From Gemmatimonadota bacterium (GTDB taxonomy: Bacteria > Gemmatimonadota > Gemmatimonadetes > Palauibacterales > KS3-K002): a stretch of DNA of 64,000 nucleotides. Location of the stretch: positions 16,358-80,357 of the forward strand of contig JBDHJS010000003.1 of NCBI GenBank assembly GCA_039586795.1, read 5' to 3'. Shown piece after piece: positions 31,201 through 53,388 of the stretch. Under the pieces are notes generated by a model that had not been told where the DNA came from, searched no databases, and saw nothing but the letters and a program-made list of their open reading frames with translations. The stretch's first letter is position 1; every line of letters begins with the position of its first letter. Both the position numbers and the translations under genes were made by a program.

Positions 31201-34200
31201 TCGCTCGCCATCCTCGTGGCCGGTCACCTTGAGGGACTCGCGGCTCTCGAGGGTGCAGGAGCTACGGCGAAGGTTATCGGACCGCTCAAGAAGGTCGAGG
31301 TGTTCGTCACCCTGGCCACGGAAGTGGCCGGGCAACCCGGCGACGGCAAATGGAACGGAGCCTTGCCGTTCGCGCTGACGGCGTTGGCGGATCGGTTCGT
31401 TTCCCGAGGCGAAGGGCAGGTCGCCGTATTCGGGCTGAAAAGCAAAGGTGTAAAGGCCAGCATCACGCCGGCGATTGGGCTCACCGGCGCGGCGGCATCG
31501 GAGATCTTGCTCAAAGACGCCAAGCCGATGTGGTCGGGCGACTGGACGGAGGCTGACGAGACTGAACTGTTCGCAGCGCGCGTTCGCGATGCTGCGGCCA
31601 TAGCTCTCGGCTCGGCGACGATACTCACCGAACGGGCAATCGATCACGCGCGCAGTCGCATTCAATTCCCGGACATGTTCCAGGATCTGGATGGCCGCGA
31701 CGGCGTTGGCAAGTTCGGCGCCGTGCGTGCGCACCTGAGCCACATCGAGGCTTCACGGCTGGCCATCGAAACGATACTCAACGACTGCGATTGGACCGCG
31801 GACTCGGATCTCGAGGCGATGGTTGGAAAGGTCGCGGTCACGGATCTCTTCGGCCCCGACATGCCGAGCATCACCTATCGGGCGGGTCAGGTGATCGGCG
31901 GCTCCGCGTTCTCGGAGGAGGACATCTTCTCGAAGGCCTACCGCGACAGCTCGGTGTTCACTCACTACATCCGAGAGAACGCGGAGCTGAACGTGGAGAT
32001 CGGTTCGAGGATATCCGCGGGCGACGGTTCGCTGCTGGCGACGATCGCGCCTGACCTATCGGCGGCGCTGGACGTCGTGGCACGACGACCGATCTTCGAC
32101 TTCGAGGTGAATCGCCTACGCGAGGCGGAGATGCAGTTGGCGGAGAACATGCGCGGCGTGCTCTCTCAAGGACAGGAACCAGCCGTCGCCGAGGTCGTGC
32201 ACGACATCGCCGGCGAGCTGGTGACGCGACTGTATGTGTGGGCGCGCCTCATGGTGCGGGCCTACCGACGCCTGGAGGGCGCGCTCCCCGCCCAGCGTTA
32301 CCTAGAGGCCGTCCAGCTATGGGCGGACATCATAGAAGAGCGTCTGCTGGGCCTCGAGGATGAGCTCGCGCAATCCGCCGCTCGAATCGAACTGGGCACC
32401 GACGCGCTTCAGTTGGACGCCTACCCCGACGAGCCGATCGCGACCAGCGGACTCGACTTCGACCTGGACAAAGACGTCATCAAAGGTGAGGTGAACTACC
32501 GCTCCGGCGATTTCCTCTTGAAGCCGTTCCGCATCGATGAGACCCGATACACGCCCGAGCTACAGTGGGTAGACGATGTCACCAGAAACCACTACGACGA
32601 GTATCTGAAGGAGATCCGGGAGCGCTTCCAGACCGGCAGGTACAAGCCTTCCTTCGAACGGGAAACGGAGCGGCTTCACTGTATTCCTCGTGAGGATATC
32701 GACTGGACAGTGGACCGTGGCTACTTCCGCGTGGTGATCCCGGAGGAGTACGGCGGACAGGGTCGATCCAAAGCCGACTACTACAACCTGTGTCAGATCG
32801 CGAAGCGGCACGGCGACGTAAGTCTTACGCTCACAATCCAAGCCAACACTAGTATCGGGACCACACCAATGCTGCTGGGTCTGGATGAAGTGATAGCTGC
32901 CGAACGCGATCTCGCGGGCGCGGTCGCGAGGGCAGCCGATGTCGAGGCCGCGAAGTCAGAGATCGAAAAGCTGATCGAGATGATGTCGATGCCAGATGTC
33001 GATGCGCTGGCGAAGAAGTACATGGAGATTGACAAGAGCGTCCGCAGCTCGATCGGCAAGAGCAGGATTCTGAAAAAGGTGGTATTCGGAAAGTTCCAGT
33101 CGGCCTGGGGCAAAGCTGGGGCGGCCGGAATGAAGAAGGATCTTGTCGGTTTTCGGAAGGGCCTCGAGAAGGCGGTGGTCGCGCTGGGTGGTTGGCAGGA
33201 GCGAGTCGCAGCCGAACTCGATGAGATGCCGCGGCGTCGTATGGCCCACGAATTCTTCCTGCGGCTGATCTCGTCCCGGATCACGTCGGCCTTCTCCCTC
33301 ACCGAGCCGAGCGCCGGATCAGATACGGCTCGGGTCCGTACGGAGGCGCGCCTCGACTCGCGGAGCGTGCTGACGGATGACGACGGCGTGAAACACTTCT
33401 ATCTGGACGAGGATGATCCGGAAAGCCGTCGCAACCTGGCGGACATGCGACGATTCGAGTTTGACGGGCGCCGGATACTGTATCGGTACAGCGACGACGC
33501 CGATCCTGCTGAAGTCCACTCTCAGGAATACACGTACTCGGAGGACGAGGAGAAGTATCGCTACTTCATGATCGGCGACCGACGGGTCGACATCCACGAC
33601 ATGGCGATCGTGCGTGAGCGTGATGGTGAAGAGGTCTACGAGTTCTTCGTGCTGAACGGCGCCAAGATGTGGATCACCAACGGCCACATCGCCGGCGTCA
33701 ACGCCATCTACGCCCGGACTCCAATGGGGCTCACCGGGTTCATGGTCGATGCGCTGACGGATGGGTTCCTAGTCGGCAAGGACGAGGAGAAGACGGGACA
33801 GCGTGGTTCACCGACGAACGAGATCGGACTCACCAACGTACGCATCCCGCGCGAGTGCATGATCGGCATCGAGGGCCGGGGTCAGGAAAACGCGCTGGAG
33901 ACGCTCAACGTCGGTCGGACGGGGCTGTGTATCTCATCGACGGCCGGCATCGACCAGGCGATCGGCGACGCGACGGCCTACCTGGAAGAGACCGGGCGGA
34001 ATTCGTCAGCCGGAGTGCGCTACCGGTTGGGTCTGACGATGGAGGAGATGTATGCCGTCGAATCGATCGCCTACAACCTGGTCGGGATCTACGACGACAA
34101 GACCAGCGACATGCCGCGCGTGGAGTCATCGATTGCCAAGCTCTTCGGGACGGAAGGACTCCACCGAATGCTCCACTTCCTGGAGCCGGTGTATGGCATC

Positions 34201-36726
34201 GATGGTCAGACACAGCGTTACCGCATCGAGAAGGACCGACGCGACGCTAGGGTGATGACGATCTACGAGGGCACGAACGAGATCCAACAGTTCCTGTTGC
34301 TGAAGGATGTGATCGACATGGTCGGGCCGAGGCTGGACAAACTCGAGGAACTGGACGTCTCGGCTGAAGACTCGGTGTTCAAAGCCGAGGTCGATGCCCT
34401 GCGCGAGATGCACGCTGCGGTCAGGGAACGGGTGAAAGAAACACGTGCGACCTATAAGAGCGCCGCCTGGCAGCGCGCGTTGCTGCAGCCTGTGTTCTTC
34501 CGTCTGGCGCGAATGGTCGCGCTGCTGAAGACAGTGGACAGCGTTCTGCACCGCGCCGACTGGGTGGCGCGCAACCTCACGGCGGACGCGGACGCGTTCC
34601 GTCGGAGTTGGAGCGACAAGGCAGCGCGCGGCTTTGTCGCGAGAGCGCGCCGCGAGTTCATGCGGTTGGCGACGGGCTTTGATCGCGATTTCGAGACCTT
34701 GAAGGCGGGCGGCCGCACCGCCGAGTTGAAGCTGGCGGAGACGCTACTCGACGAAACGGAGATCGCCGCCGCGCACGGAAAGGCGGGCACCGGCGGGATC
34801 GAGAGGTCGCCGATCGATCGAGGTTTGGAGATCGTTGTAGCGCTGGAACGAGCGCCGCATTTGGCGCCGCGACCGCGCGTCATTGACGGCGAGCTGGCCG
34901 AGCACGTGTACGGATTCACGGCGGGAGACCGTCGTGCTCTGTCGATGGCTCTGGCTTTGAAATCGGCGTCGCCGGAGCGGGTCCGTGTGACGCTAGTATG
35001 TGCCGCGCCCGTGGAAGTGGAGGACGCGCTGCGCGCCGGGCTGGCCGCAGGCGCGGACCGGGCAATTCTGATCGACACGCGCGGGGAGTTGTACGAGGAG
35101 CATTCGGTTGCCGACGCGATCACCGGTGTTCTGCGACAACGCAACATCGATCCCGACCTGCTTCTTTCTGGCGCGTCGGAGGACGGCCCCAGCGGGGGCC
35201 GGCTCGGCCTCAGACTCGCGAGCGAATTGGACATCGAATGGGCCCCGAACGTGACCGAGCTGTGGGTGGACGGGAGCACGGCGGTAGTGACCAGCGAACG
35301 GTTTCCCGACAGCCTCATAAAGGCGGACCTGCCTGTTGCCGCATCGGTCGCGGGATCGGAAGGCGAGCCCGCTCCGGAGTTCACGGCCGCCGGTTTTGCG
35401 GAGGCGCTACGCAAAGACGTGGATGCCGTCCCGTTCCCAGACGACGCGGAACGCGCCGACGAGGAGCTAGCAACGACATCAGCACAGGCGACAACTGAGT
35501 CGCATGACGATGCCGGTCGCATCGATCCAGAGCGCGCCGCCGAGCTACTGGTTGAAGTCGGCGACCTGGGAGACGGCTCCGCCGTGCCGACGGGCGAACC
35601 ACATGCGGGAGCCATCGAGTCGGTCAGCGTCGACTCGTTGGATTGGCGCGGGGTGGTCTTCATCGCCGAGATCGAAGACGACAACCTGGTTAGAGACGCC
35701 AGAGCGCCGCTCGAGGCAGCGAGCGGCCTGGCAGAACGATCCTCTCTTCCACTATCGGGTTTGGTATTGAGCGAGCGTCTGTCCGATGACCGCCGTCGAG
35801 CGATCGCCGGACGCCTCGCCGCGCACGCGCCGTTCGGGCAGATCGTTTTCGCAGAGCACGATGCTCTGGGCGACGGCGCCTACCGCGCCTACGTCGAAGC
35901 ATTGGAGAAGCTGGTGGGGCCGGAATCCAGAACGCGCCCGACCTATCTAGTATCATCGCCGTGGCTGGCCGACGCGATGCCACCGCTGGCGGAGGTGCTT
36001 CGTCGATCCGACGTCGACGCGGACGAACTGGCCGGTGTTTCGCGGGTGGAGTTCCGCGACGGCGATGGTGTCGCGTTCGTCCAACCCGCGTACGAGCGTA
36101 AGTTGAGAGCACGACGTCACCTTCCTTACGCCGCTGACGCGATGCGGATCCTATGGTTCGAACCCGAAGTTACGTCGGAGCCAGGGGAAGCGACCTCATC
36201 GGATCCGACGGTAGTAGTGGTCGGCCTCGATCTGGACTACGATCCGCAAACAGATGCCCTGACCGAAGCGCTGCTCGAGGCAAAGAAGGCCCTTGGTGTG
36301 GTGACGTTGGAGAACGCCGAGTTCGTCATCGACGTGGGTGCCGGCCTGGGCTCCGTCGACAATCTGGACACGGTTGTGGAGCCATTGCGCCAAGCGCTGC
36401 TCGAGCTCGGGGCGCCGCACGTACTCATCGGCGCAACCCGCAAGGTGACGATAGATATGAGCTGGCTGCCGGAAGAGCTTCAGGTCGGGCAGACCGGCGT
36501 TCGAGTGAATCCGCGTATCATGATCGCGCTGGGCGTTTCAGGCGCGCCTCAGCACATCGACTGGGTGGGCGATCGCGCGGTGATCTTCGCGTTCAACATG
36601 GATGCGCAGGCGCCGCTGATGACGCTCAACCAGAGACGTGAACAGCCGAAGGTCTACCCGATCGTCGGCAACCTGCTCGAGACCGTCCCCCGCTTCATCA
36701 AGGCTCTGAAGCACGGACGCGATTGA
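28243..36726 (+). CDS. Giant multidomain flavoprotein: ETF-quinone oxidoreductase/FixC-like + FixX-like 4Fe-4S + divergent ACAD-like + acyl-CoA dehydrogenase + EtfB-like + EtfA-like (2,827 aa)
   Basis: Single uninterrupted ORF. Approximate aa positions: 14-400 FAD Rossmann (DVIIVGGGPAGITAAL) with ETF-QO/FixC similarity. 655-700 CP...CVKCETC 4Fe-4S. 900-1330 ACAD-like (ERAIDHARSRIQFP, YRDSSVFTHYIRENAE). 1480-2030 ACAD (FSLTEPSAGSD, MWITNG, IYEGTNEIQQ). 2160-2370 EtfB-like. 2450-2827 EtfA N- and C-domains (IALGVSGAPQHIDWVGDRAVIFAFNMDAQAPL, matching GISGAIQH...AINKD..API). Confidence 0.85.
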   Translation: MPLTNTSQEDMSAKLWDVIIVGGGPAGITAALRLAREDLDILVVEAAVYPGAENWSGAVYFAENLADPKVLGVDGLEAAPYEGRVVKRGFFSCNGLSMAGLEYENPETFKHCYTVLRPVYDRYLAEVARREGVTFLTETTVDGLIRRNDRVVGVHTDRGPVYGQIVFLAEGDASHLVSKEGFEGDAVRAKKNGQPAFLQGVKEVIQLEPEVIEDRFGVGPGEACCYEILLRNGVVDGKPVRLNMAGLLYTNRNSVSIGLVMPLDNLAEYRGDYNALMEWYKSLPPIARLIEGGEATSFGAKIIRSGGLAEMPRLVADGVVVGGAATGIGVDFPYPNFTGPATAMGRIFADAVLKLQSEGAEPRSGQLEELYVQPLKETSYYKDVDYLRDWPGFIEHTDALFSRQIDLLNGSSYAMTRPTLRFPHSWWETVRVVSETMKGRWSKTLKDLAGGSKALRMGRLIAKHMPAALLLSVPNTLLALMPFAYGKGPGKISLSFWVDGEESRTLPWYKRWSYARYRSALMKATAIVYANDGVPIRTKLDRAIGTLLRRFSLWEIVLGVLGVAVFWLTRGLQKLSDAIRYSRKKPTIEELTATFYGSWLTRWRAMTDLARAASTGQTHDAKLGEISYGGDVGSHIKVFFPPDKPGTLEDPSRSALWSVCPASVYQINVDRTMHASVAVNFENCVKCETCWRIEPQHVDWSRFGKHRLTYEVYTDADASLRQLLSERELRDTPEIEPSFWSATLTEAWPVGHVEASDALRSDITNARRAIDRAAAKCSELSDNIWLGPRVLEPGQVSWYISALEYFAVLADEAASVALSEPIEDWLIEHELAGAHLELLQAKRDLDLVTRGIREHAGSQKFFAGEADARQAAGHHLAGMREIIDRIALACRIPDDYVDPVAELRNQEQESPARAAAREELREHLAAIFDRGAIRRLEDGGSPEGAEIEALRESTRAALGDETQGAFDSWAPLTRSDILGELSRIDPSLAILVAGHLEGLAALEGAGATAKVIGPLKKVEVFVTLATEVAGQPGDGKWNGALPFALTALADRFVSRGEGQVAVFGLKSKGVKASITPAIGLTGAAASEILLKDAKPMWSGDWTEADETELFAARVRDAAAIALGSATILTERAIDHARSRIQFPDMFQDLDGRDGVGKFGAVRAHLSHIEASRLAIETILNDCDWTADSDLEAMVGKVAVTDLFGPDMPSITYRAGQVIGGSAFSEEDIFSKAYRDSSVFTHYIRENAELNVEIGSRISAGDGSLLATIAPDLSAALDVVARRPIFDFEVNRLREAEMQLAENMRGVLSQGQEPAVAEVVHDIAGELVTRLYVWARLMVRAYRRLEGALPAQRYLEAVQLWADIIEERLLGLEDELAQSAARIELGTDALQLDAYPDEPIATSGLDFDLDKDVIKGEVNYRSGDFLLKPFRIDETRYTPELQWVDDVTRNHYDEYLKEIRERFQTGRYKPSFERETERLHCIPREDIDWTVDRGYFRVVIPEEYGGQGRSKADYYNLCQIAKRHGDVSLTLTIQANTSIGTTPMLLGLDEVIAAERDLAGAVARAADVEAAKSEIEKLIEMMSMPDVDALAKKYMEIDKSVRSSIGKSRILKKVVFGKFQSAWGKAGAAGMKKDLVGFRKGLEKAVVALGGWQERVAAELDEMPRRRMAHEFFLRLISSRITSAFSLTEPSAGSDTARVRTEARLDSRSVLTDDDGVKHFYLDEDDPESRRNLADMRRFEFDGRRILYRYSDDADPAEVHSQEYTYSEDEEKYRYFMIGDRRVDIHDMAIVRERDGEEVYEFFVLNGAKMWITNGHIAGVNAIYARTPMGLTGFMVDALTDGFLVGKDEEKTGQRGSPTNEIGLTNVRIPRECMIGIEGRGQENALETLNVGRTGLCISSTAGIDQAIGDATAYLEETGRNSSAGVRYRLGLTMEEMYAVESIAYNLVGIYDDKTSDMPRVESSIAKLFGTEGLHRMLHFLEPVYGIDGQTQRYRIEKDRRDARVMTIYEGTNEIQQFLLLKDVIDMVGPRLDKLEELDVSAEDSVFKAEVDALREMHAAVRERVKETRATYKSAAWQRALLQPVFFRLARMVALLKTVDSVLHRADWVARNLTADADAFRRSWSDKAARGFVARARREFMRLATGFDRDFETLKAGGRTAELKLAETLLDETEIAAAHGKAGTGGIERSPIDRGLEIVVALERAPHLAPRPRVIDGELAEHVYGFTAGDRRALSMALALKSASPERVRVTLVCAAPVEVEDALRAGLAAGADRAILIDTRGELYEEHSVADAITGVLRQRNIDPDLLLSGASEDGPSGGRLGLRLASELDIEWAPNVTELWVDGSTAVVTSERFPDSLIKADLPVAASVAGSEGEPAPEFTAAGFAEALRKDVDAVPFPDDAERADEELATTSAQATTESHDDAGRIDPERAAELLVEVGDLGDGSAVPTGEPHAGAIESVSVDSLDWRGVVFIAEIEDDNLVRDARAPLEAASGLAERSSLPLSGLVLSERLSDDRRRAIAGRLAAHAPFGQIVFAEHDALGDGAYRAYVEALEKLVGPESRTRPTYLVSSPWLADAMPPLAEVLRRSDVDADELAGVSRVEFRDGDGVAFVQPAYERKLRARRHLPYAADAMRILWFEPEVTSEPGEATSSDPTVVVVGLDLDYDPQTDALTEALLEAKKALGVVTLENAEFVIDVGAGLGSVDNLDTVVEPLRQALLELGAPHVLIGATRKVTIDMSWLPEELQVGQTGVRVNPRIMIALGVSGAPQHIDWVGDRAVIFAFNMDAQAPLMTLNQRREQPKVYPIVGNLLETVPRFIKALKHGRD

Positions 36727-38374: not shown

Positions 38375-39604
38375 TCAGGAGGGATCGTGAATGACGCCGA
38401 TGAAGAGGATGGTGCCGGAGAAGCGTTCACGGATCGCGAAGAGAAACGGCCTATCGACACGCACAGCCATCGGCGCGCTGGTAACACCCACCTCGACAGA
38501 GGTGACAGCGGCCGCCTCGGTGCCCTCTTCGTTGACATCGACAAAGGTCTTGTGTTTGACTTTGCTGATGAAGAGCTGAGCCTGGTCGTTGATCCTGGAG
38601 AAATCGGCGTTCAGTTCGTCGAAGGCGATCTCCATGCCGAGGGCCTTCAGCGCTTCGTTCAACTCGATCTCGTACTCGAGGGTGAACTTGGGGAGGTACA
38701 CCTCCATTTCAGCGGCCAGCAGCCCGTCGATCCAACCCTGCCATGTGGCCGCGTCAATCGAAGCGACCAGCGAATCGATGTCACGACCACGGTCCGGCAG
38801 AACGATCGTCATGCTATACGCCTTACCGCCATACGGAAGGTCGGCTACAAGAACGCCTTCATCGTAGTAGGATCGCAATTCCGCTTCGCCGCCGTGGGTC
38901 ATCATCGGCACCTGGACCGTACCGCCGTCGGCCAGGGTGAAGACGCCAGGCGCGGTCCGATCCGGATCGAATTGGGTGGTCCAGTTCCCCTTGAAGTAGA
39001 TGGCATTGATGAGGAACATGATGATCTCGGGCGCGATCGCATCGACAATCTCACTGATCCGACCGTTGGTTTTATCGTCTACCCAGCTGTTGATGATCCC
39101 CGGTGCGCCAGGGTCGTCGAAGTCGAGCGTCGCCACCTCGGCGTCGAAGTGCTCGATGTTTACATCGATGAAATCCTGTTCGACGGGAAAGTTCTCACGA
39201 ATCCAGATCGAGTTGGCCAGAGTGAACTGCACGGAAGAGTCGAGGTTAGCAAGAAGATCGATCAGGCTGCGATAGGAGTCGTTTACGTCATCGATCGATA
39301 GCCCCTGTAGCTCGAGCGTCTCTTGCATAGCCTCGAGCGTTGTGCCATCGGCGCCGTTGTATACCATGCCGAGCGCCATGGCGACGCTGAGCGGTGATAG
39401 AAAGATGTTGGCACCAACTTCCTCGCCCTGATGAACTTCGCGGAAGAGCTTGAGGCCGAAGCTGTTGTCCGACTCGATGAGCTGCTCTTCACCCGCTTCG
39501 AGGTCGCGAGGAAGCCCTTCGATCTGCGGATTCTGGATATCTTCGTCGCATCCCAGCGCGACCAGCACCCAAAGACCCGCTACGATAGCTGTGAGTCGTC
39601 TCAT
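38375..39604 (-). CDS. Serpin (serine protease inhibitor) family lipoprotein
   Basis: Lipobox LVALGC. Serpin blocks NIFLSPLSVAMALGMVYNGA and C-terminal PFLFAIRERFSGTILFIGVIHDP; the ~400-aa length fits. Confidence 0.8.
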   Translation of the reverse strand: MRRLTAIVAGLWVLVALGCDEDIQNPQIEGLPRDLEAGEEQLIESDNSFGLKLFREVHQGEEVGANIFLSPLSVAMALGMVYNGADGTTLEAMQETLELQGLSIDDVNDSYRSLIDLLANLDSSVQFTLANSIWIRENFPVEQDFIDVNIEHFDAEVATLDFDDPGAPGIINSWVDDKTNGRISEIVDAIAPEIIMFLINAIYFKGNWTTQFDPDRTAPGVFTLADGGTVQVPMMTHGGEAELRSYYDEGVLVADLPYGGKAYSMTIVLPDRGRDIDSLVASIDAATWQGWIDGLLAAEMEVYLPKFTLEYEIELNEALKALGMEIAFDELNADFSRINDQAQLFISKVKHKTFVDVNEEGTEAAAVTSVEVGVTSAPMAVRVDRPFLFAIRERFSGTILFIGVIHDPS

Positions 39605-39846
39605 CGCTCAGCTCCCAACTTGACTGGCTCTCTAACCGGCAAACGGCACACGGCAGCCGGTACGACGTCTAACCCCATTTAGAACGTCAACCGTATGCCG
39701 CATACCGCTTACCGAAATATTCCACCTGCCTCGTTTCCTCTGTCCGGGCCTAATTTAGATGTCGCCAACCCGCCGAAAGTTAAATGGGCCGCCGTGGCGG
39801 AACCCTGGAAGGCCGCCAGCGGTTCTAGCCAGCGAGGAGGCCGTAA

Positions 39847-40377
39847 ATGCAGCGAAAGACCACAAGGATCCTGATCATCGCGGCGCTGGTCATGCTGGCC
39901 GCCTGGCGGCTACCACGCAGCCCCGAGCCGCCGCCGGCACCGGAGACCCGCCCGGAGTTCCCGAGCTTCAGTCTCGAGACGTTCGACGGCGCGCTGGTGA
40001 CACAGGAGGAGCTGGCGGGCAAGGTTACGCTCGTGACGTTCTGGGCGAGCTGGTGCCCCGCCTGCCGGGCCGAACTGCCGCTGCTCGACAGCCTGAACAA
40101 CGCCGTCGACCATCCGGACTTTGTGGTTATCGGTATCAACGAGGATCGGCATGAAGCCCCGGCACGCTTCCTTGCGGAGCAGTTAGGGCTGGAGATGAAG
40201 CAGCTACTTGGCCGCGGATACCAACAGGCGCGCTACGGCTACTGGGGACTGCCGTATACGGTTCTGCTGGATCGTGAGCGTCGGATTGTGGGCACCTGGT
40301 ACGGTTACCCGGGACGGCGCGGCTTTGACGAGAAGATCGCCGGTCTGGTCCAAACAGTATTGGATGAAGAAGGTTAG
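39847..40377 (+). CDS. TlpA-family thiol:disulfide oxidoreductase (thioredoxin fold)
   Basis: N-terminal TM/signal and redox motif WASWCPACRAE (CxxC). Confidence 0.8.
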   Translation: MQRKTTRILIIAALVMLAAWRLPRSPEPPPAPETRPEFPSFSLETFDGALVTQEELAGKVTLVTFWASWCPACRAELPLLDSLNNAVDHPDFVVIGINEDRHEAPARFLAEQLGLEMKQLLGRGYQQARYGYWGLPYTVLLDRERRIVGTWYGYPGRRGFDEKIAGLVQTVLDEEG

Positions 40378-40613
40378 GCGTTGACTTCGCCGTCCGGCGC
40401 ACCCAGGCTCTTGTCTCCCAAGCGGGGACGCAGAGCCGGGTAGCCCTTCCCACCGCAGTGTACGCACGCTTCCACCAAGGACCAAAGCAGACCGTCACAA
40501 AGAGCGCACTGCGACTTTTCCCCTGCATCGGCGCGGTCATCGGTAGGCGCTCCACAGGCCTTGCAGGATGCAGCCTCAGCGCCCAGCGGCGCGCCGCAGA
40601 TCGAGCAATCCAT
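40374..40613 (-). CDS. Small double zinc-ribbon protein (79 aa)
   Basis: Start at 40613 preceded by AGGAG. Four CxxC pairs (CSIC, CKAC, CALC, CVHC). The longer ORF to 40691 is probably a spurious extension. Confidence 0.45.
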   Translation of the reverse strand: MDCSICGAPLGAEAASCKACGAPTDDRADAGEKSQCALCDGLLWSLVEACVHCGGKGYPALRPRLGDKSLGAPDGEVNA

Positions 40614-40796
40614 CGTGAATCTCCTGTTCCCGCAATTACTTACGGACACTGAGGTGTCCAAACAACGCGACAATCGCCCTTGCCCCGCCACCTGAGTCTC
40701 GTTTACCTTCCGGCCTCAATAATCCTCGGAGTGGAGGGTCCCAAGCGACCCAGCGACAATATAACGACTGCTCCGGGCTTCGCTCGTAGGGGATAA

Positions 40797-41504
40797 GTGA
40801 ACGATTCAGCCACCGTGGCCGCAAAGCCGTTCCCGGAGAAGGAGTACGACCGGCTACCCTGGCACGTGTACGTGTTGGGCGGCGTGATCATCCTGATCGG
40901 GATCGCGACGTTCATACTCATGTCGATAGAGGGCGAACGGAAGGACGGATATCTCTACCTGTTCTTCTACTCCATCCCGGCAAACACGGCGATCTCTGTA
41001 TTCCCTCACGAACCGATTCTGATCTACTACGGCAAGTTCGCCAACTTGTGGATCACTTCGCTAGCCGCAACAGGAGGCACGATCGTAGCCGGCTGGCTCG
41101 ACCACCGGGTATTCGTACCGGTCCTCAACTACAGCAAGATCACGGGATACAAGCAGAGCAGGTTCTACAAGAAGATGACGGACATGTTCATGAAGTATCC
41201 CTTCGCGACGCTTCTAGTGACCGGGGCTACGCCAATACCTTTCTGGCCCTTCAAGCTGTTGGTGTTCTCTATACACTACCCGTTGTGGAAGTACCTGACG
41301 GCGCTGGTCATAGCACGATTCCCAAGGTACCTGTTCCTCGCGTGGGCCGGCTCGATCTTCAATATTCCCAACTGGGTGTTGATCGGGATCGTCATACTTA
41401 TCTTCTCGACCTACGCTGTGCGGGGCATCCCTGAGTTGTGGCGCCGAATCAAGGAGTCGCGGCGACGCAAAGAGGAAGGCGCTGAGAACACGTATCGAGT
41501 CTAG
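40797..41504 (+). CDS. VTT-domain (DedA/YqaA/TVP38-like) membrane protein
   Basis: Polytopic. The central region (FPHEPILIYYGKF...) resembles the VTT/SNARE-associated domain. Local GC is clearly lower than the flanks. Confidence 0.5.
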   Translation: MNDSATVAAKPFPEKEYDRLPWHVYVLGGVIILIGIATFILMSIEGERKDGYLYLFFYSIPANTAISVFPHEPILIYYGKFANLWITSLAATGGTIVAGWLDHRVFVPVLNYSKITGYKQSRFYKKMTDMFMKYPFATLLVTGATPIPFWPFKLLVFSIHYPLWKYLTALVIARFPRYLFLAWAGSIFNIPNWVLIGIVILIFSTYAVRGIPELWRRIKESRRRKEEGAENTYRV

Positions 41505-41570
41505 AGGTTGGATGACGCGATTTCAAAGTCGCGGCGTACGTAACAATGGGGACTGAAAGGTTACTACTGG

Positions 41571-42659
41571 ATGAACGTATCCGGGAAGATGGCTCTGAAG
41601 ATGCTCGCCCGGGGCATCCGGAACAAATACGCCCAGAAACCGATCTCGATATCGTTCGAGATCACCCATTACTGCACGGCCAACTGCTGGCACTGCAATT
41701 GGGGAGGGCCGGTAAAGGACGAGAATCGCCTCCAGGCAGAGGATTACGCCGCGATCTGCCGCGAATTGAATCCTGTGGTCTCACACATCTCGGGCGGCGA
41801 GCCGCTGGCTCGAAGCGACGTGGTCGAGATCACGCGAGCGATGGCCAATCCCGGCGACCTGCCCTTCATGGTTTTGGTTTCCAATGCCGCGGCCCTCACC
41901 GTCGATAAGTACCACAAGCTGCGGGACGCGGGTATCCACCAGTTCTCTATCTCCCTCGACTTCCCGGATGAGCGGCACAGCGACTTCCGCCGCATCCCCG
42001 GTCTGTTCGAAAAAATGAACGAGCGGATTCCGGAGATCACGGCGCTGGGAAACAACGACCTGTCGCTCAACGTCTGTATCACGGCGTGGAACTACAAAGA
42101 CCTGGCCGACATGGTGAAGCTGGCCAGGAAGTGGAACACCAAGATCAACTTCTCGGTCTACACCCCGTTGCGCATTAATGACGAGCAGGGATTACCGGCT
42201 GAGGAGAAGCTGCATGAAGTACGGCAGTCGTTCCAAACGCTAATCGATATGAAGAAGGCCGGTTGGCCGGTCTATTCGTCGGAACGGGTGTTGTGGAAGT
42301 ACTTCCAGTTCTTTACTGACCGGGGGATACCCGGATGCCAGGCGGGTCGCCGCTTCCTAGTCATCAATCCTGACGGGATGCTCACTCCATGCGCGATGGT
42401 CTGGGCGAAGTACAAGACACAACGCGAGATGTTGGGAAACTTCACGTCCATCAACACGTGCCAGGAATGCTATATCTCGACCCGCGCCAACACGGAGAAG
42501 AAGCTGAGTGACTTCATCTCCGACAACTGGGGCATGATGATGAAGCAGCTCTTCTCCCGTAAGCCGGCTCTTCCTTCCCCAGGCGACGACGCGGTGGAAT
42601 TGCCCTCCCCGGAGGACGCTGAAGCCAGGCCCGAGCGTCACCGGGCAGCCGCACAGTAG
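41571..42659 (+). CDS. Radical SAM protein with C-terminal SPASM/twitch-type auxiliary cluster domain
   Basis: CxxxCxxC motif CTANCWHC right after ISFEITHY. C-terminal motif GCQAGRRFLVINPDGMLTPC...CQEC matches the CxAG...I.pDG.v.PC SPASM/twitch pattern. Confidence 0.75.
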   Translation: MNVSGKMALKMLARGIRNKYAQKPISISFEITHYCTANCWHCNWGGPVKDENRLQAEDYAAICRELNPVVSHISGGEPLARSDVVEITRAMANPGDLPFMVLVSNAAALTVDKYHKLRDAGIHQFSISLDFPDERHSDFRRIPGLFEKMNERIPEITALGNNDLSLNVCITAWNYKDLADMVKLARKWNTKINFSVYTPLRINDEQGLPAEEKLHEVRQSFQTLIDMKKAGWPVYSSERVLWKYFQFFTDRGIPGCQAGRRFLVINPDGMLTPCAMVWAKYKTQREMLGNFTSINTCQECYISTRANTEKKLSDFISDNWGMMMKQLFSRKPALPSPGDDAVELPSPEDAEARPERHRAAAQ

Positions 42660-42980
42660 ACCATAGGCCGGCGGAACCCGGCCAGCCGACGAATCGGCTC
42701 AATTTGGCCGCGCCTCGAGGCACAGAAACCGCGGCCAGATCCATTTCGGCGCCCCACACTGGCCGCGGCCGCTCGTTGCGCCGGCGCGACAGGGCCGCGA
42801 CACCGCACGCTACTCCCACCCCGACTGTAGCCAATATCCCGCAAGAACAGGGCACCGCAGCCGGGATTGCGCATGAATTAGGGGTTTTTGGGGCCCCGTG
42901 TTGTGCACGCCTCTTGCTACCACCCGTAGAAGTGAAGCCCGCAAAAGACTGACGCTGTAAGGCAGAAGCCAAAACAGGAC

Positions 42981-44000
42981 GTGGATATGGTGGGATTAGA
43001 GCCGAATCGTCCGCCACTGGTGCTGGTAGCGAATGATGAGGAATGGTGGGCCCGATCGCTGGAGAGCCTGCTGTCGCCTGGAGGATATGCCATCCTCCGC
43101 GCCTATACGGGCAGACAGACTCTGGAGCGGGCACACGAGGTGGGGCCCGACCTGATTATCCTTGACGCGAGCCTACCCGACATACCCGGCATCGAGCTGT
43201 GCCGACGGCTGCGCAGCGACCGTCGAGTCAGTAGCGCGACGCCGATCCTGATCACGACAGCCGGCCGCTGCACCAGGGAAGAGCGACTGGAGGCGCTGAG
43301 CGCGGGCGCATGGGACTTCATCGGTCTGCCGTTGGACGCCGATGACCTGATCTTGAGGCTCAACGCTTACATGCGGGCCAAGCTGGAAGCCGAGCGTACG
43401 AAAGAGGAAGGTCTCATCGACCCCCTCACCGGCCTGTACAACCTACAGGGCCTGAGGCGTCGAGCCCGCGAACTGGGCACAGATGCTTATCGGCACGGCC
43501 GGGCGTTGGCCTGCGTTGCCCTGGCCTTGAGGATAGAAGATCCCTCCAACTCTGACAGCTCCGATGTCTTCTGGGACGCGATAGACAGGGCTGGCACCGT
43601 GCTACGCGACTCGGGTCGCATCTCCGACGCCATAGGTCGGATCCGTGATGGCGAGTTCGTGATCATCGCACCGGAGACGGACGACACCGGCGCGCACCAG
43701 CTGGCGCAGCGGTTGTCGACCGAGGTCGAAGAGATCATGGCCGTCGGTGAGAGTATGCCTCCCGTTCAGGTGCTCGCGGGATACAGTGCCGTACCCAACC
43801 TTCAATCCGCCGGCGTTCGGCCGAGCGCCATATTGGCAAACGCGAAGATGGCGCTGAGCCGCTTGCAGGCACAGCCCGGCGGATCGGGAGTCCTCCGGTA
43901 CGAAGGAGACTACGACGACAGTGATCTGGATGATGGCGGAGATCTGGGGCAGAGCCTGGCTGACATAACTGTGGAGCCACAGCGTCACGCTACGCACTGA
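42981..44000 (+). CDS. Response regulator: receiver domain + degenerate GGDEF domain
   Basis: Receiver (LIILDAS...); GGDEF fold starting DPLTGLYN, with the active-site GG(D/E)EF replaced by RDGEF. Paralog of 52421..53347. Confidence 0.7.
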   Translation: MDMVGLEPNRPPLVLVANDEEWWARSLESLLSPGGYAILRAYTGRQTLERAHEVGPDLIILDASLPDIPGIELCRRLRSDRRVSSATPILITTAGRCTREERLEALSAGAWDFIGLPLDADDLILRLNAYMRAKLEAERTKEEGLIDPLTGLYNLQGLRRRARELGTDAYRHGRALACVALALRIEDPSNSDSSDVFWDAIDRAGTVLRDSGRISDAIGRIRDGEFVIIAPETDDTGAHQLAQRLSTEVEEIMAVGESMPPVQVLAGYSAVPNLQSAGVRPSAILANAKMALSRLQAQPGGSGVLRYEGDYDDSDLDDGGDLGQSLADITVEPQRHATH

Positions 44001-44027
44001 CAGAAGGCTGGACTTGCTGTTAGGGAA

Positions 44028-46964
44028 TCACTTCCAGAGACGGACGTGATTTCTACGCTGGTGCTCGCGGAAGGATTCGATGCGAGCGTCGACTCCCGCG
44101 AGATCTTCGTCAATCGCCCTTCCTAAGCGGCCTTCGCCGTTGCCGTTGCCATTCCCACTCCCGTTCCCGTTCCCGTGGCTGTTCCCCTCTTCGTTGCTAT
44201 CAACCTGCCAATCGAGGATTTCGAAGTCGGTGATTTCGAGATCGGCAACTTCCACAGGTTCCACTTCCTGGATGACCGACTCGATTTCCAGATCCAGTAG
44301 TTCATCGAGCCGCGAATACCGAGACGCATTGAAGTCGACCTGAATCTCCGCAGCGATCGGCAACTCACTTCCGTTTCCGTTCCGCTTTCTGTTGCCGCTG
44401 TGAGTGCCGTTACCGTTGTTCCTTCCGTTTCCGTTGCCATCGGGGAGCGTGACCCGTTCCACGCGGTCGACCTCGGTCCGCGGATCGACCTTCGGGGGTT
44501 CAGTCTGCGAGTCGTCGACGGACGCGCCTTCACGGAGGTCGATGCTCCGCTGTATCCGTTTTCCGGGCAGCGCGCGCTTGGCCTCGTCAGGCAGATACAA
44601 GCTAGCGTAAGCCTTACGATGGTAACGATAGACGCCAACGTGTGGAACGTCGTTGAGGATCGCGCCGAGTAGCCGGACCGGCAATCGAGCCAGCGAATCG
44701 AGCCGCCATTCCGTCGCGGACCGATTGGTCGTACCCGTTCGGACGACCAACACCATGTTGCGGGTGAGCGTGCCGAGAGCCAGCGGGTCGGCACAAGCTG
44801 CGAGGGGCGGCGTGTCCACCAGGATCACGTCGTACTCCTTACGCATCTGAGCCAAGAGATAAGTCATGGCCCGAGATTGCAGCAATTCGGGCCCATCCTG
44901 ACGGCGGGTCCCGCTGGCTATTCGAGAGAGTGCCCTGTGACTGGTCGAACGCACGACCTTCTCTAGCGGCGCGTTGCCGGCGAGATAGTCGGTAAGTCCT
45001 GGCTTGCGGCCGCCGCCCAACAGGCGATGCTGGGAACCGCGTCGAACATCGGCGTCGATGATCAGCGTGCGGTACCCCATGCCGGAAAACGCCATTCCCA
45101 AGTTGGCCAGCACGAACGACTTACCATCCTCGGGCTCGGGGCTGGTTACCGACAGGACCACGGGCCCAGCCGTCCCGTGGGCGTGAGCGACGTTGAGGCG
45201 AATGACCCTGAAGGCCTCGACGACCTGTGCTGCCTTGAGGGCGCTCAGCCCGCGGGAGCCGTTGTTCACGTGTGGCACGGAGCCGATGACCGGCACGCCA
45301 AGACCGTCGCTAACTTGCTGAGGGTAACTCAGTCGCGTGTCCAAGAAGTCCAGAAGAATGCCGACGCCCACCGCGATACACAGGCTGGCCATGAGAGCCA
45401 TGAGGATGAACTGCTCTTCCTGGCTCTCATTGATCGGCTGCTGCGGCGGGAAGGCGGCGTCCATGACGCGGACATCTGGAATACTGCTCTCCGCGGCGAG
45501 GTGTGCTTCATCGCGGCGCGCCTGGAGCGTATTGAAGAGATTGGCGGCGATCGCTACCCTGCGCTCCAGCCGCGCCTCACCGATTGCCCGCATCGGAGTC
45601 CTGCGCAACTCATCGGCCGCGGCCACGATCATGCTCTCGAGAATCACTTCCCGATCGGCGAGCGTCCGAGAAAGATCGGCGGCCAGGCGGGGCACCGTCG
45701 ATGTCTCGAGTGATTGGATCTCGCTTCTAAGGTCCCGGACGGCCTGGTGCTCTTCCGTGTAGCGATTGAGCTGCGAGCGCAACTCGGATCGCTTTGACGT
45801 GAGCTCGCCCATCGCCAGAACCAGATCAGAGGATGCTCTCACAGACGGGATGATCTCGAGCCCCTCGATCGAGGGTCCAGATTCCGACGCGTTCCTCAGC
45901 ACACGATCGATTGACCAACGATCGCGTCTCAGCTGTTCACGCTCGATCAGCAAGCTCGAGTAGTTCGAGAAGGCGGACTCGCGTGTCGACTCGACTCCAG
46001 GCGCGACCGGCGTGGCGCGCTGCGCCGGGAGTGTGATGGTCCTGACCCGAAACGACTCGAGCTCACCCTCAGCCTCAAGCAGTTGCTGATGGGCCTGCGA
46101 CAGTTGCTCGTTCAGAATGCGGGTGGATTCGAGGAGCCTTTCACGCTTGAGGTCATGCACGACCTGCACGTAGCGCTGGCTCACCGCGTTGAGCACTTCC
46201 GAGATCTGAACCGGATCCTCGCCCGTCAGGCTGAGGTTGAGGAATGTATGCTCTGAATCGATTTCGGTATTGATGCGCTCGCCGAGACTCCTGGCGACGT
46301 CTCGCAAGCTCTCGACACTGAACTCTATGTCGCCCCCGAGGGCCGACACACGCTCCAGAGTTTCCTGGCCTGTTAGCGGACCGCTCAAGTCGTCGATCGC
46401 GCCCTCATGCACCAGCTTGTCGCCAGCGGCAATCAGCTGGAAACGGCGGCCGTCAGGATCGACGGCGAGTCGGTAATGGCCGGCCGCCAGACCATCATCC
46501 AGCTGGAACTGGGCGAGCAGGTTAGCTTCCTGCGGCGAAGCGGCTCTGAGATACAGGCGCAGGTCGCCGACGACTTCGTCGAGCACCCGGTACGATCGGA
46601 GGAGCTCTACCCATGCGGCACCGGCCTGAAGCAGCTGGCCCGTCTGCACAGGTGCCTGCTCGTTGGCGCGGCTATCGCTAGGCTCGATCCAGATGGTCGT
46701 TTGCGCTTTGTACTGGGGCTTTATCTGGTGAGCCAATGCGAATCCGCTCGCCGAACCCAACACGGCAACCAGCAAGACAACCCAGCGGTAGCGCCACACC
46801 GCGACTATGAATCGACGCCAGTCCAGCGAAGAAGCGAGCGGGAGCTCGTGTGCGGCGCTGCCGTTTGACGGGCGTGCACCATTACCACGACCTGCACCGT
46901 TCCCCTGCGGGGTCGTGTGATGCGGCAGTTTCCTGCCGTTATGGCTGGTGAACGCGCTGGGCAT
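44028..46964 (-). CDS. Polysaccharide co-polymerase/tyrosine autokinase (Wzc/GumC-like BY-kinase), copy 1
   Basis: Wzz-type N-terminal TM plus a periplasmic coiled region. P-loop kinase domain SVTSPEPEDGKSFVLANLGMAF (Walker A), IIDADVRRG. C-terminal Tyr cluster YRYHRKAYASLY. Start chosen at MPSAFTSH by alignment with the paralog; the ORF is open up to 47303. Confidence 0.75.
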   Translation of the reverse strand: MPSAFTSHNGRKLPHHTTPQGNGAGRGNGARPSNGSAAHELPLASSLDWRRFIVAVWRYRWVVLLVAVLGSASGFALAHQIKPQYKAQTTIWIEPSDSRANEQAPVQTGQLLQAGAAWVELLRSYRVLDEVVGDLRLYLRAASPQEANLLAQFQLDDGLAAGHYRLAVDPDGRRFQLIAAGDKLVHEGAIDDLSGPLTGQETLERVSALGGDIEFSVESLRDVARSLGERINTEIDSEHTFLNLSLTGEDPVQISEVLNAVSQRYVQVVHDLKRERLLESTRILNEQLSQAHQQLLEAEGELESFRVRTITLPAQRATPVAPGVESTRESAFSNYSSLLIEREQLRRDRWSIDRVLRNASESGPSIEGLEIIPSVRASSDLVLAMGELTSKRSELRSQLNRYTEEHQAVRDLRSEIQSLETSTVPRLAADLSRTLADREVILESMIVAAADELRRTPMRAIGEARLERRVAIAANLFNTLQARRDEAHLAAESSIPDVRVMDAAFPPQQPINESQEEQFILMALMASLCIAVGVGILLDFLDTRLSYPQQVSDGLGVPVIGSVPHVNNGSRGLSALKAAQVVEAFRVIRLNVAHAHGTAGPVVLSVTSPEPEDGKSFVLANLGMAFSGMGYRTLIIDADVRRGSQHRLLGGGRKPGLTDYLAGNAPLEKVVRSTSHRALSRIASGTRRQDGPELLQSRAMTYLLAQMRKEYDVILVDTPPLAACADPLALGTLTRNMVLVVRTGTTNRSATEWRLDSLARLPVRLLGAILNDVPHVGVYRYHRKAYASLYLPDEAKRALPGKRIQRSIDLREGASVDDSQTEPPKVDPRTEVDRVERVTLPDGNGNGRNNGNGTHSGNRKRNGNGSELPIAAEIQVDFNASRYSRLDELLDLEIESVIQEVEPVEVADLEITDFEILDWQVDSNEEGNSHGNGNGSGNGNGNGEGRLGRAIDEDLAGVDARIESFREHQRRNHVRLWK

Positions 46965-47447
46965 CGTTTCGGTGCCGGATGCCTGGCTGAGGGTTCTGGC
47001 GGGTAACCATTCCATCCAGCAACAGGGATGCCGCTGGGCCGAGTTTTCCACAAAACGCTGAAAGGCGTTGGAAGATAAGGTGTTTGCGGCACTGGCAGGG
47101 GTCGGTGCTGGAAGTGGGAATGTGGTGTGTAGACGCAGCGCTACAGATCGGCCCCGTAGGCGGGATAGGGTGTGGCTTTGGTCCGACCCTCTAGGGAGGA
47201 CCGCGGTCACGTCGGCTTTACTATTGACATTTCTCTCTTTCATCCGTACTGTTGCATTCCCGCTGCTTCTGCGACGTCGGCTCCACAGTTCGCGTCGCTC
47301 CACGTCGGCCCCATCGCCGCAGCAGGTAAGCGGGCCTACGTAGACTTTGGGCCGCCGGTCCCGCCACGGCTGAAGTTCTCAACGGATCTCACAGGACGTT
47401 CTATCGCCACTTCGCGGTGCGCGATCCTGAAACGTGGGAGGCTCCCG

Positions 47448-50150: not shown

Positions 50151-51263
50151 CTAACTTCGCGAGACAATCCCCCTTACGATCACATCGGCGATCCGCTCCG
50201 CAGCTTTCCCATCCCAGAGTTCCGGCGCCTTCTTCAAAGGCCGGCTACCGTTCCTCTTTTCGGTGGCCTGCAGGGCAGCTCCGACAATCGCATCCGCCTC
50301 GAGGCTGACCAAACGATTGGTGCCCTGCTCCACCGTAACCGGACGCTCGGTGTTGAGACGAAGCGTGACACACGGGACTCCGAGGACGGTGGTCTCCTCC
50401 TGGATACCCCCCGAATCGGTGAGCATGACCGCCGCCTCCGACATAAGAGCCAGAAACTCCTGATATCCGAGCGGATCGATCAAGCGCACGCGCCCCAGCT
50501 TTGAGCGCAGCCCGAACGAATCGAGTTTGCTCTGCGTTCTCGGGTGCACGGGAAAGACCACGGGCAGTGTCTCCGCGACATCCGCCAGGGCGTTGACTAT
50601 CGGTTCGAGCGATTCGGGGCTGTCCACATTGGACGGCCGGTGTAACGTGACCAGCGCGTAGCTTCGCTCCGACAGGTCGTAGCTGGCCAGCGTCTTCAGC
50701 GTCGGAACGTGCTCGAGCTGTTTCAGCAGCGTGTCGATCATCACGTTTCCGACAAAGTGAATCCGGTCTTCGGACACGCCCTCTTTCTTCAGGTTCTCGT
50801 TGGCAGCACGCTCAGTCGTGAAAAGGAAATCGGACAGACGATCGGTGACCACGCGATTAATCTCTTCCGGCATGCCCCAGTCGAACGAGCGGAGTCCGGC
50901 TTCGACGTGCGCCACCGAGATTCCCAGCTTGGCTGCGACCAGCGAGCATGCGACTGTCGAGTTCACATCGCCCACAACGACCACGAGGTCAGGCTGGCGC
51001 TCCAGGCAGATGGGCTCGAACGCCTGCATGACGCGAGCCGTCTGTTCCGCATGAGTGCCCGATCCGACACCGAGATCCACATCCGGTCGTTGAATTCCGA
51101 GCTGGTCGAAGAAGATCTTTGAAAGGGCCTCGTCGTAGTGCTGGCCGGTATGAACGAGTATCTGCTCGACCTCGGGATAGGCGCGAAGCGCCTCCATAAC
51201 GGGCGCTATCTTCATGAAGTTGGGCCGCGCGCCCGCTACGTGTAGAACTCGCCGACTCGTCAT
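50151..51263 (-). CDS. wecB: UDP-N-acetylglucosamine 2-epimerase (non-hydrolysing)
   Basis: Conserved N-terminus (LHVAGARPNFMKIAPV, HTGQHYD, VVGDVNSTVA) and C-terminal blocks typical of WecB/MnaA. Confidence 0.85.
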   Translation of the reverse strand: MTSRRVLHVAGARPNFMKIAPVMEALRAYPEVEQILVHTGQHYDEALSKIFFDQLGIQRPDVDLGVGSGTHAEQTARVMQAFEPICLERQPDLVVVVGDVNSTVACSLVAAKLGISVAHVEAGLRSFDWGMPEEINRVVTDRLSDFLFTTERAANENLKKEGVSEDRIHFVGNVMIDTLLKQLEHVPTLKTLASYDLSERSYALVTLHRPSNVDSPESLEPIVNALADVAETLPVVFPVHPRTQSKLDSFGLRSKLGRVRLIDPLGYQEFLALMSEAAVMLTDSGGIQEETTVLGVPCVTLRLNTERPVTVEQGTNRLVSLEADAIVGAALQATEKRNGSRPLKKAPELWDGKAAERIADVIVRGIVSRS

Positions 51264-53347: not shown

Positions 53348-53388
53348 CTGATCCTCGAGATGTTAAGCCTGCCTTCAGTCTACTTGCA

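Follow-up and report, generated by a model that had tools for sequence, protein, structure and literature searches.

The twitch/SPASM branch of the radical S-adenosylmethionine (SAM) enzymes includes PqqE, MftC, SkfB, CteB, SuiB, BlsE, BtrN and MoaA, and to our knowledge none of its families has been described with DedA membrane and zinc-ribbon partners. Membrane lipids are acted upon by the radical SAM enzymes Tes/GDGT-MAS, Mss, Gms and HpnH, of which Tes combines the core and auxiliary clusters with a rubredoxin-like Cys metal domain (PMC13459092). DedA proteins are lipid scramblases or flippases (PMC10127716). Within them, COG1238 is an uncharacterised subfamily whose substrate is not known and for which uncharged or cationic lipids have been put forward as cargo; some 99% of its members are reported to consist of a single domain, and the section devoted to the subfamily names no partner (PMC10127716). 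Here we analyse a locus of a Gemmatimonadota bacterium (assembly GCA_039586795.1, contig JBDHJS010000003.1, positions 16,358–80,357 of the forward strand; this whole stretch of 64,000 nucleotides is the window, and coordinates refer to it) in which the genes of a VTT/DedA-like membrane protein (VTT), a radical SAM enzyme (rSAM) and a small double zinc-ribbon protein (DZR) lie together. They form a well-supported three-gene module that is undescribed as far as literature searches show; these turned up no relevant paper that combines a VTT, DedA or YqaA protein with radical SAM. Our favoured reading, with a probability of roughly 0.45, is that the enzyme acts on a membrane lipid with a lipid translocase as its partner and DZR as an accessory.

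The locus is organised as follows.
40374–40613, minus strand: DZR, a 79-residue double zinc-ribbon protein with four CxxC knuckles, divergent from VTT-rSAM
40401–40445, minus strand: DZR tail motif GYPALRPRLGDKSLG (translation), consensus GYPALRPRxGxxxxG
40614–40796: DZR-VTT divergent intergenic region of 183 nt, the presumed site of both promoters
40797–41504, plus strand: integral membrane protein of the VTT/DedA superfamily, of predicted YqaA (COG1238) type, 235 residues, GTG start
41571–42659, plus strand: rSAM, 362 residues, with Radical_SAM (PF04055; 51.9 bits, cut-off 29.5) as its sole Pfam domain
41673–41696, plus strand: CTANCWHC, a CX3CX2C motif (C35, C39, C42), candidate ligands of the SAM-cleaving [4Fe-4S] cluster
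42336–42470, plus strand: twitch-like (half-SPASM) auxiliary-cluster region, CQAGRRFLVINPDGMLTPC...CQEC (CQAG...PDGMLTPC...CQEC)
39847–40377, plus strand: redoxin (thioredoxin-fold, TlpA-like) with Pfam AhpC/TSA and Redoxin matches

The identities given to these genes in the original prediction, made from the sequence alone (a VTT/DedA-like protein, a radical SAM enzyme with a C-terminal auxiliary-cluster motif, a thioredoxin-fold redoxin and a double zinc ribbon), are correct according to Pfam and motifs. The CTANCWHC motif and the four-CxxC neighbour of 79 residues that it named are both present, and the latter is identical to the called product P0406 in the public collection. The stop codons of the convergent redoxin and DZR genes overlap by 4 nt (40374–40377).

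The linkage of the three genes was surveyed in both directions. For the forward survey, species-representative genomes were searched with the window proteins, and 80 of the 142 loci found with an rSAM relative were covered. The VTT and DZR genes adjoin rSAM in 72 of the 80, which is 72 of the 76 informative loci; the uninformative ones lie at contig ends (L007, L010, L059) or contain an N gap inside the VTT gene (L004), and in four loci (L029, L049, L050, L051) rSAM stands alone. For the reverse survey, metagenome contigs were scanned for the DZR tail motif, which returned 79 loci. VTT or rSAM adjoins all 54 true DZR genes that have 700 nt or more of upstream sequence, and likewise all 38 with 900 nt or more on both sides. 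The single exception, L154, and likewise L166, are chance out-of-frame matches to the motif and not true DZR genes. The zinc-ribbon gene is an obligate third member of the set in Gemmatimonadota, not a mere flank.

Five gene orders were found among 118 loci with the complete trio (D, DZR; V, VTT; R, rSAM; > and <, strand): D<V>R> in 103 loci, D<R>V< in seven, V>D>R> in five, V>R>D> in two and D<R>V> in one. VTT and rSAM are separated by an estimated median of about 27 nt and in many cases overlap, and the genes 3' of rSAM vary between genomes. Because the trio persists through these rearrangements, its linkage is strong evidence for a functional unit. The redoxin, noted earlier as a flanking gene, is not part of the unit: of the 80 loci only three (L003, L005, L008), all close relatives, have a TlpA homologue within 6 kb, and the redoxin itself scores 60 bits against the NCBIfam TlpA equivalog model, which has a cut-off of 230. 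The neighbourhood is thus conserved as far as VTT, rSAM and DZR are concerned, and not for TlpA.

The trio is rearranged in a Gemmatimonadaceae-type clade (L067, L069, L070, L073, L074, L078, L079, L080). In this clade the second zinc knuckle reads CxC where other loci have CxxC, and VTT is only 26–31% identical to the window protein, while rSAM is still 54–57% identical. In Candidatus Palauibacter the trio lies between a SpoU methylase gene and unrelated genes. In one Candidatus Palauibacter locus (L081), a prophage-like or integrative element with a phage integrase, a helix-turn-helix protein, a Peptidase_S24 repressor and many unannotated open reading frames (ORFs) occupies 13280–20855, about 2 kb downstream of the trio.

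The radical SAM enzyme shares with the twitch/SPASM proteins a partial TIM-barrel core with CX3CX2C and GGE motifs and, at the C-terminus, a beta-hairpin CX12GX4C followed by CX2C, a candidate auxiliary Fe-S site. In an alignment of 95 sequences, C35 and C39 are invariant and C42 is kept in at least 90%, and the SGGEP motif for SAM binding (S74, G75, G76, E77, P78) is invariant. On the strength of the cluster motif, the PF04055 score and the GGE motif, the protein can be assigned to the radical SAM superfamily. The family signature reads CxxxCxHC ... SLDFPDERHxxFRRIPGLF ... TRANTEK. In the first element, a His takes the place of the aromatic residue that usually precedes the last Cys of the cluster motif; this xHC form is kept in the relatives P0242–P0250, and a more distant sister group has F or M there. 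The second element contains an invariant basic cluster (R135, H136, R140, R141). In the third, T304, R305, A306 and E309 are invariant, and N307, T308 and K310 are kept in at least 90% of the sequences. C169 is also invariant, as are all Cys of the C256-X12-G269-X4-C274 hairpin and of C297-X2-C300. These are the only four Cys after the core, with no CX5CX3C continuation for a second SPASM cluster, which argues for a single auxiliary cluster of the twitch or half-SPASM type rather than a full SPASM domain; at E ≤ 0.01 the enzyme has no match to Pfam SPASM (PF13186). The C-terminal domain is therefore predicted to be of the twitch type, with one candidate auxiliary cluster. The SPASM/twitch motif that had been proposed stands as regards its twitch-like half and falls as regards the full seven-Cys SPASM. 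Compared with the described twitch/SPASM enzymes, the window enzyme differs in the His of CWHC, in its four auxiliary Cys and in having no RRE/PqqD domain.

The enzyme belongs to the twitch/SPASM branch but to no described family. It reaches no NCBIfam model cut-off, and every score falls 4–13 times short. The best match is AhbD (74.9 against a cut-off of 500), followed by TIGR04053, TIGR04133, NirJ2, PqqE (67.4 against 381), MoaA (60 against 325) and MftC (58.8 against 265); BlsE (45.6 against 400) and HpnH (29.3 against 225) are also short, and the models of SkfB, AlbA and further peptide maturases either give no match or stay far under cut-off. No NCBIfam cut-off is reached by ten more distant relatives (P0243–P0272) either. 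The function had been left unassigned in the original prediction, and it stays so, with no classification as MoaA, QueE, PqqE, AhbD or another curated NCBIfam family. By sequence, the best matches in the PDB are PqqE (1e-9) and BlsE. An AlphaFold 2 (AF2) model with a predicted local distance difference test (pLDDT) score of 84.3 displays alternating beta/alpha elements and aligns to BlsE and SkfB over about 260–270 columns. The best Foldseek matches of the model are PqqE, BlsE, SkfB, CteB, MoaA, SuiB and viperins, with template-modelling (TM) scores of 0.48–0.56 and 14–20% identity.

The presence of viperins among these matches, together with weak PADLOC matches to pVip (26.6 and 25.8 bits), would be compatible with a viperin-like enzyme of anti-phage defence. 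We consider this highly improbable: the pVip matches span the generic radical SAM core only, VTT and DZR have no PADLOC match, and the family is 54–87% identical across the phylum in syntenic, housekeeping-like contexts, unlike defence islands. With PADLOC matches at core level only, a role in defence was rejected.

The membrane protein scores 35.4 bits against the VTT_dom profile of Pfam (PF09335; cut-off 33.9), covering profile positions 1–122 of 123, and its divergent Gemmatimonadaceae counterpart scores 36.0 bits. It is assigned to the DedA superfamily on this match. Eleven residues are invariant throughout the phylum: N63, S67, P70, E72, P73, P146, P148, F149, R174, P176 and R177. The first loop, FPHEP, contains the invariant acidic E72, and a second, Pro-rich loop, TPIPFWPFK, holds a single Lys. 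Homologues are labelled 'membrane protein YqaA with SNARE-associated domain' in JGI annotations, and these names and the loop residues agree with a predicted YqaA/COG1238 type. The features in common with COG1238 are thus the VTT domain, the YqaA name, the acidic loop residue and the Pro-rich motifs (PMC10127716). The window protein differs in being tied to the rSAM and zinc-ribbon genes and, in one case, fused to rSAM.

This fusion was found among relatives outside the phylum, in a profile search of 1.84 billion representatives that gave 93 clusters at E < 1e-30. P0242 is a single ORF of 568 residues, the N-terminal half of which is 46% identical to VTT (9e-59) and the C-terminal half 46% identical to rSAM (4e-99). 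It is a putative Rosetta-stone fusion that links the two proteins. P0244 is 41% identical to the window rSAM over its full length (1e-92) and shares the family signatures; on two contigs its gene overlaps by 8 nt a gene of the LPG_synthase_TM family, of the MprF-flippase type (PF03706, 124.9 bits). In the more distant P0310, rSAM is fused to an NTP_transferase domain, and the genes 3' of it encode a PF03706 protein (97 bits), PMT_2 and a CDP-alcohol phosphatidyltransferase. In both P0244 and P0310 the flippase-type gene follows rSAM at the place of VTT. PF03706 is unrelated to VTT, and in MprF it is fused to an aminoacyl-phosphatidylglycerol synthase and not paired with a radical SAM enzyme; the transmembrane domain of MprF flips lysyl-phosphatidylglycerol (PMC8131360). 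Since two unrelated families of lipid translocases occur beside rSAM, a membrane lipid is favoured as its substrate or product. Another relative, P0267, sits on a contig of 1 kb. In Poribacteria, the stand-alone P0243 (L082, 7453–9005) has a NusG paralogue upstream, and a GH2 glycosidase and then a neutral ceramidase downstream.

The zinc-ribbon protein is recognised by Pfam only below the cut-offs (PF12773, 22.1 against 27.3; Zn_ribbon_3, PF13248, 19.3 against 27), and some of its homologues carry a precomputed Pfam DZR match. Its consensus is CPxCG-x10-CxxCG-x14-CxxC-x10-CPxCGxxGYPALRPRxGxxxxG. Across 32 diverse orthologues the eight Cys and G57, Y58, P59, L61, R62, R64 and G71 are invariant, and A60, P63 and G66 are kept in at least 90%. 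The AF2 model of the protein alone is weak (pLDDT 59), and the tail is unstructured, with values below 50–57. A tail as conserved as the metal ligands and yet disordered has the hallmarks of a linear motif to which a partner binds or on which it acts, and in the light of the model the tail is probably a docking or substrate motif. A DZR profile gave matches in the PDB at zinc-ribbon level only, with eL37 (E = 0.011) at the top and LysW at E = 0.18. The sequence CGYPAKRKR of eL37 resembles CGETGYPALRPRRGK of DZR; kinship with eL37 was rejected, the match being no better than generic zinc-ribbon similarity. LysW, QhpC and eL37 have in common with DZR that they are small Cys-rich proteins with a conserved functional tail, which serves as a carrier arm in LysW, receives cross-links made by a radical SAM enzyme in QhpC and binds rRNA in eL37. 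They differ in that GYPALRPRxG is not found in them and the matches stay at the generic level.

Three roles are possible for DZR, namely a dedicated accessory, a substrate with the tail as its core, or a regulator or nucleic-acid binder. Near the relatives from outside Gemmatimonadota, among them P0244 and the VTT-rSAM fusion, no DZR-like gene was found; DZR is therefore an addition specific to this phylum, one that the enzyme does not need in general. This restriction mildly favours an accessory or a regulator over a substrate. Gemmatimonadota are largely aerobic. A possible analogue of an accessory is Dph3 (Kti11), a small iron protein of the Cys4 kind, which provides the radical SAM-like Dph1-Dph2 with electrons or iron and permits its function in air (PMC8251694). 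The likeness is that of a Cys4 protein of about 80 residues dedicated to a SAM-radical enzyme; the two proteins have no sequence kinship, DZR is built of two ribbons plus a conserved tail, and Dph1-Dph2 is a non-canonical radical SAM enzyme that acts on a protein. The rubredoxin-like domain of the lipid enzyme Tes is a second possible analogue of an accessory (PMC13459092).

The second role corresponds to a modified form of the earlier idea of a system resembling those of ribosomally synthesised and post-translationally modified peptides (RiPPs). DZR itself would be the substrate, and the enzyme would alter Tyr58, Pro59, Arg62 or Arg64 of the tail, through a change such as cross-linking, epimerisation or C-methylation, to yield a modified small protein or a peptide-derived cofactor, with VTT anchoring or exporting it. 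DZR and rSAM co-occur strictly in both search directions, the tail, conserved and by prediction unstructured, fits a segment that enters an active site, and DZR is mostly transcribed apart from the enzyme genes. The best sequence and structure matches of the enzyme are moreover to peptide-modifying proteins (PqqE, MftC, SkfB, CteB, SuiB), and small-protein substrates of radical SAM enzymes without a RiPP-recognition domain are known in QhpC/QhpD and sulfatase/anSME. On the other side, these maturase matches are generic (TM about 0.5, 14–20% identity). Pfam and NCBIfam detect no PqqD-like domain, peptidase or ABC exporter, and no RiPP-recognition (PqqD-like) domain was seen in rSAM (Pfam), the trio or the flanking genes. 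The tail motif does not form the C-terminus, the need for a lipid translocase-like partner is left unexplained, and the closest relatives outside the phylum, the fusion and P0244, have no DZR-like gene nearby. No obvious precursor peptide had been noted before, and in agreement with this no conserved short ORF was found in 42660–42980 or between the genes of the trio. DZR could itself be the precursor candidate by its invariant tail, but it is a folded Cys8 protein that is absent beside the outside relatives. The RiPP-like idea thus survives with DZR and GYPALRPRxG as the possible substrate. A recognition domain and a short precursor ORF were looked for in vain, and the context of the relatives speaks for lipids more than for peptides; we regard it as unlikely.

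Under the favoured reading of a lipid-modifying enzyme, a mechanism can be proposed. What we observe directly is a conserved trio without signs of horizontal transfer, one VTT-rSAM fusion and the ligands of the clusters; that the substrate is a lipid, which way translocation runs, what reaction takes place and what DZR contributes are points that we infer. The enzyme would work at the cytoplasmic face of the inner membrane, where it would cleave SAM reductively at the CX3CX2C cluster and take a hydrogen atom from a membrane lipid or a lipid head group. It would carry one fully Cys-ligated auxiliary cluster of the twitch type, and the patch of invariant basic residues R135, H136, R140 and R141 might bind an anionic group of the substrate. 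The VTT protein of YqaA/COG1238 type would serve as a lipid translocase-like partner that either presents the substrate to the enzyme or carries the product across the bilayer. DZR may bind the complex via its invariant unstructured GYPALRPRxG tail and would most likely be a dedicated accessory, either with a Cys4 metal site that gives electrons or iron, or as a structural subunit. The likeness to Tes/GDGT-MAS, Mss, Gms and HpnH lies in the proposed action on membrane lipids. Tes, of about 500 residues, differs in having three extra metal domains in one chain, whereas the window enzyme is shorter and has one auxiliary cluster, and the Cys-rich component in the window is a separate protein. The NCBIfam models of Tes and HpnH are far from their cut-offs for rSAM and for the ten relatives.

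Several observations weigh against a lipid substrate. The fusion is known from one metagenomic contig of 5 kb with 52% GC, the pairing with PF03706 from two lineages only, and stand-alone relatives of rSAM with no membrane partner exist in Poribacteria and on unassigned contigs (L082, L084, L086, L168, L171). The trio has no conserved lipid-biosynthesis gene beside it; the neighbours in Palauibacter are genes for the SpoU methylase, Rho and proline dehydrogenase. The nearest solved structures modify peptides (PqqE, SkfB, CteB, SuiB) or nucleotides (BlsE, MoaA, viperin) and not lipids, and the lipid enzyme Tes (7TOL) is a weak sequence match (E = 0.006) that ranks 40th by fold in Foldseek. As to an electron-donating DZR, its knuckles resemble ordinary zinc ribbons, with sub-cut-off Pfam scores and no rubredoxin match, and typical rubredoxin potentials are too high for reducing a radical SAM cluster. 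A more far-reaching form of the proposal sees in the trio an undescribed three-component lipid-modifying machine that makes a new neutral or cationic lipid or head group, in which a twitch radical SAM enzyme is docked on or fused to a COG1238 DedA protein, an MprF-type flippase replaces DedA elsewhere, and a Dph3-like DZR attaches through GYPALRPRxG. We hold this version to be tentative and rather unlikely.

The matches to BlsE, MoaA, viperin and AhbD/NirJ in the Foldseek and profile searches could also point to a soluble anionic substrate, nucleotide-linked or tetrapyrrole-like, in which case VTT would transport the compound and DZR would be a nucleic-acid-binding regulator of the divergent operon. 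The basic cluster would suit a phosphate or a carboxylate, and a nucleotidyltransferase is fused to rSAM in P0310. The divergent orientation in 103 of the 118 loci is what a regulator and its target typically show, and the second ribbon and basic tail of DZR weakly resemble the rRNA-binding eL37 (E = 0.011). All family scores are, however, far under the cut-offs, and the eL37 match equals other zinc-ribbon matches. DZR is co-oriented with the enzyme genes, inside or after the operon, in seven loci, and the cargo for which DedA and PF03706 proteins are known consists of lipids rather than soluble metabolites. A k-mer search of 114 DZR-VTT intergenic regions for an operator found no motif common to the phylum. 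The promoter and terminator scan gave no more matches than shuffled sequence, with no sigma-70-like promoter in the DZR-VTT intergenic region, and an Rfam scan of 39500–43500 gave only one chance miRNA match, with none in the 183-nt region. A soluble substrate with DZR as regulator is in our view distinctly unlikely.

The low GC content of the VTT and rSAM genes had been taken as a sign of horizontal acquisition. The low value itself is confirmed: 40797–42659 (1863 bp) has a GC content of 0.568 against a window mean of 0.6235 (standard deviation, sd, 0.022), which places it in the lowest 0.6% of sliding windows of equal length, and the two genes have the lowest GC of the 35 genes of the window. 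The surroundings, put at about 66% GC, measure about 62%. Only codon positions 1 and 2 are short of GC. At the first position (GC1) the values are 0.479 for VTT and 0.537 for rSAM, compared with 0.652 (sd 0.046) for the window genes, whereas at the third (GC3) they are 0.788 and 0.793, above the 0.756 of the window genes. The summed fraction of Phe, Tyr, Asn, Lys, Ile and Met is 0.343 in VTT and 0.284 in rSAM, compared with 0.185 (sd 0.044), and the richness of the proteins in these residues accounts for the low GC. Synonymous-codon divergence from the rest of the window, assessed by multinomial simulation, is ordinary (z = 2.3 for VTT, 10th of 35 genes; z = -1.4 for rSAM). The low GC is an effect of amino-acid composition and not of foreign codon usage.

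Homologues of the rSAM family with 54–87% identity are present in at least 142 Gemmatimonadota species genomes, and the close homologues of both rSAM and VTT are all from Gemmatimonadota. The serpin, Wzc and response regulator-GGDEF flanks are syntenic in close relatives, and neither an integrase or tRNA gene nor a repeat boundary showed up among the ORFs listed for the region. From the native composition and the phylum-wide distribution, horizontal acquisition is rejected; the locus is a three-gene set inherited vertically within Gemmatimonadota and not an island. A horizontally acquired low-GC islet with an accessory biosynthetic cassette, which the total GC alone would suit, is refuted by codon statistics, distribution and synteny, and retains a negligible probability. 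For annotation, the lesson is that low total GC here reflects constrained proteins rich in Phe, Tyr, Lys and Asn, not a foreign origin.

The flanks constitute an exopolysaccharide (EPS)-type neighbourhood with a Wzx-like flippase, a serpin, a response regulator-GGDEF protein and a Wzc-like kinase. Synteny of the serpin, Wzc and response regulator-GGDEF genes with the trio is limited to close relatives, and on this ground they were rejected as functional partners, as was TlpA.
20465–22261, plus strand: angiotensin-converting-enzyme-like Peptidase_M2
24159–26750, minus strand: AsmA-family protein
28243–36726, plus strand: one uninterrupted ORF of 2827 residues
36698–38248: Wzx-like flippase, part of the EPS-type locus
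38375–39604, minus strand: bacterial serpin (Pfam Serpin, 375 bits) with a lipoprotein-like N-terminus, LVALGC
42981–44000, plus strand: response regulator-GGDEF, adjoining rSAM (Pfam GGDEF, 36.3 bits)
44028–47303, minus strand: Wzc-like protein, 1091 residues
48996–50129: histidine kinase, same EPS-type locus
50151–51263: UDP-GlcNAc 2-epimerase, same locus
51282–52145: Wza-like exporter, same locus

The response regulator-GGDEF protein has RDGEF at the position of the GGDEF signature and may be a degenerate, non-catalytic diguanylate cyclase. The Wzc-like protein has a long N-terminal extension ahead of its Wzz domain and low-complexity NGNG (Asn-Gly) repeats near both ends. A pair composed of a response regulator-GGDEF gene (plus strand) and a Wzc-like Wzz-GNVR-P-loop gene (minus strand) occurs twice, about 9 kb apart, at 42981–47303 and 52229–56226, each time within the EPS-type locus. 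The ORF of 2827 residues has an N-terminal FAD-binding domain, acyl-CoA dehydrogenase (ACAD) N/M/C domains (1464–2016), an electron transfer flavoprotein (ETF) domain (2223–2392) and an ETF-alpha FAD domain (2689–2772), and by these matches it looks like an unusually large ACAD-ETF fusion protein. The AsmA-family and Peptidase_M2 genes lie 14–20 kb upstream of the trio. AsmA proteins are proposed partners of COG1238 DedA proteins (PMC10127716), and linkage of the window AsmA gene to the trio was not seen.

DedA/VTT proteins are nearly universal and the substrate of the YqaA/COG1238 type is not known, so the gene pair and its natural fusion with rSAM give a handle on this type (PMC10127716). 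The product of the radical SAM enzyme, once found, would probably reveal the cargo of the VTT transporter. The pairing of rSAM relatives with an unrelated flippase suggests a general arrangement of a radical SAM enzyme plus a lipid translocase, and DZR, with its invariant linear motif, may represent a new bacterial case of a protein dedicated to a radical SAM enzyme, as its accessory or its substrate, in mostly aerobic organisms. For the DedA subfamily that is least understood, the locus offers a first clue from genomics, and if the three-component lipid machine proves true, it would provide the first biochemical function for COG1238 (YqaA).

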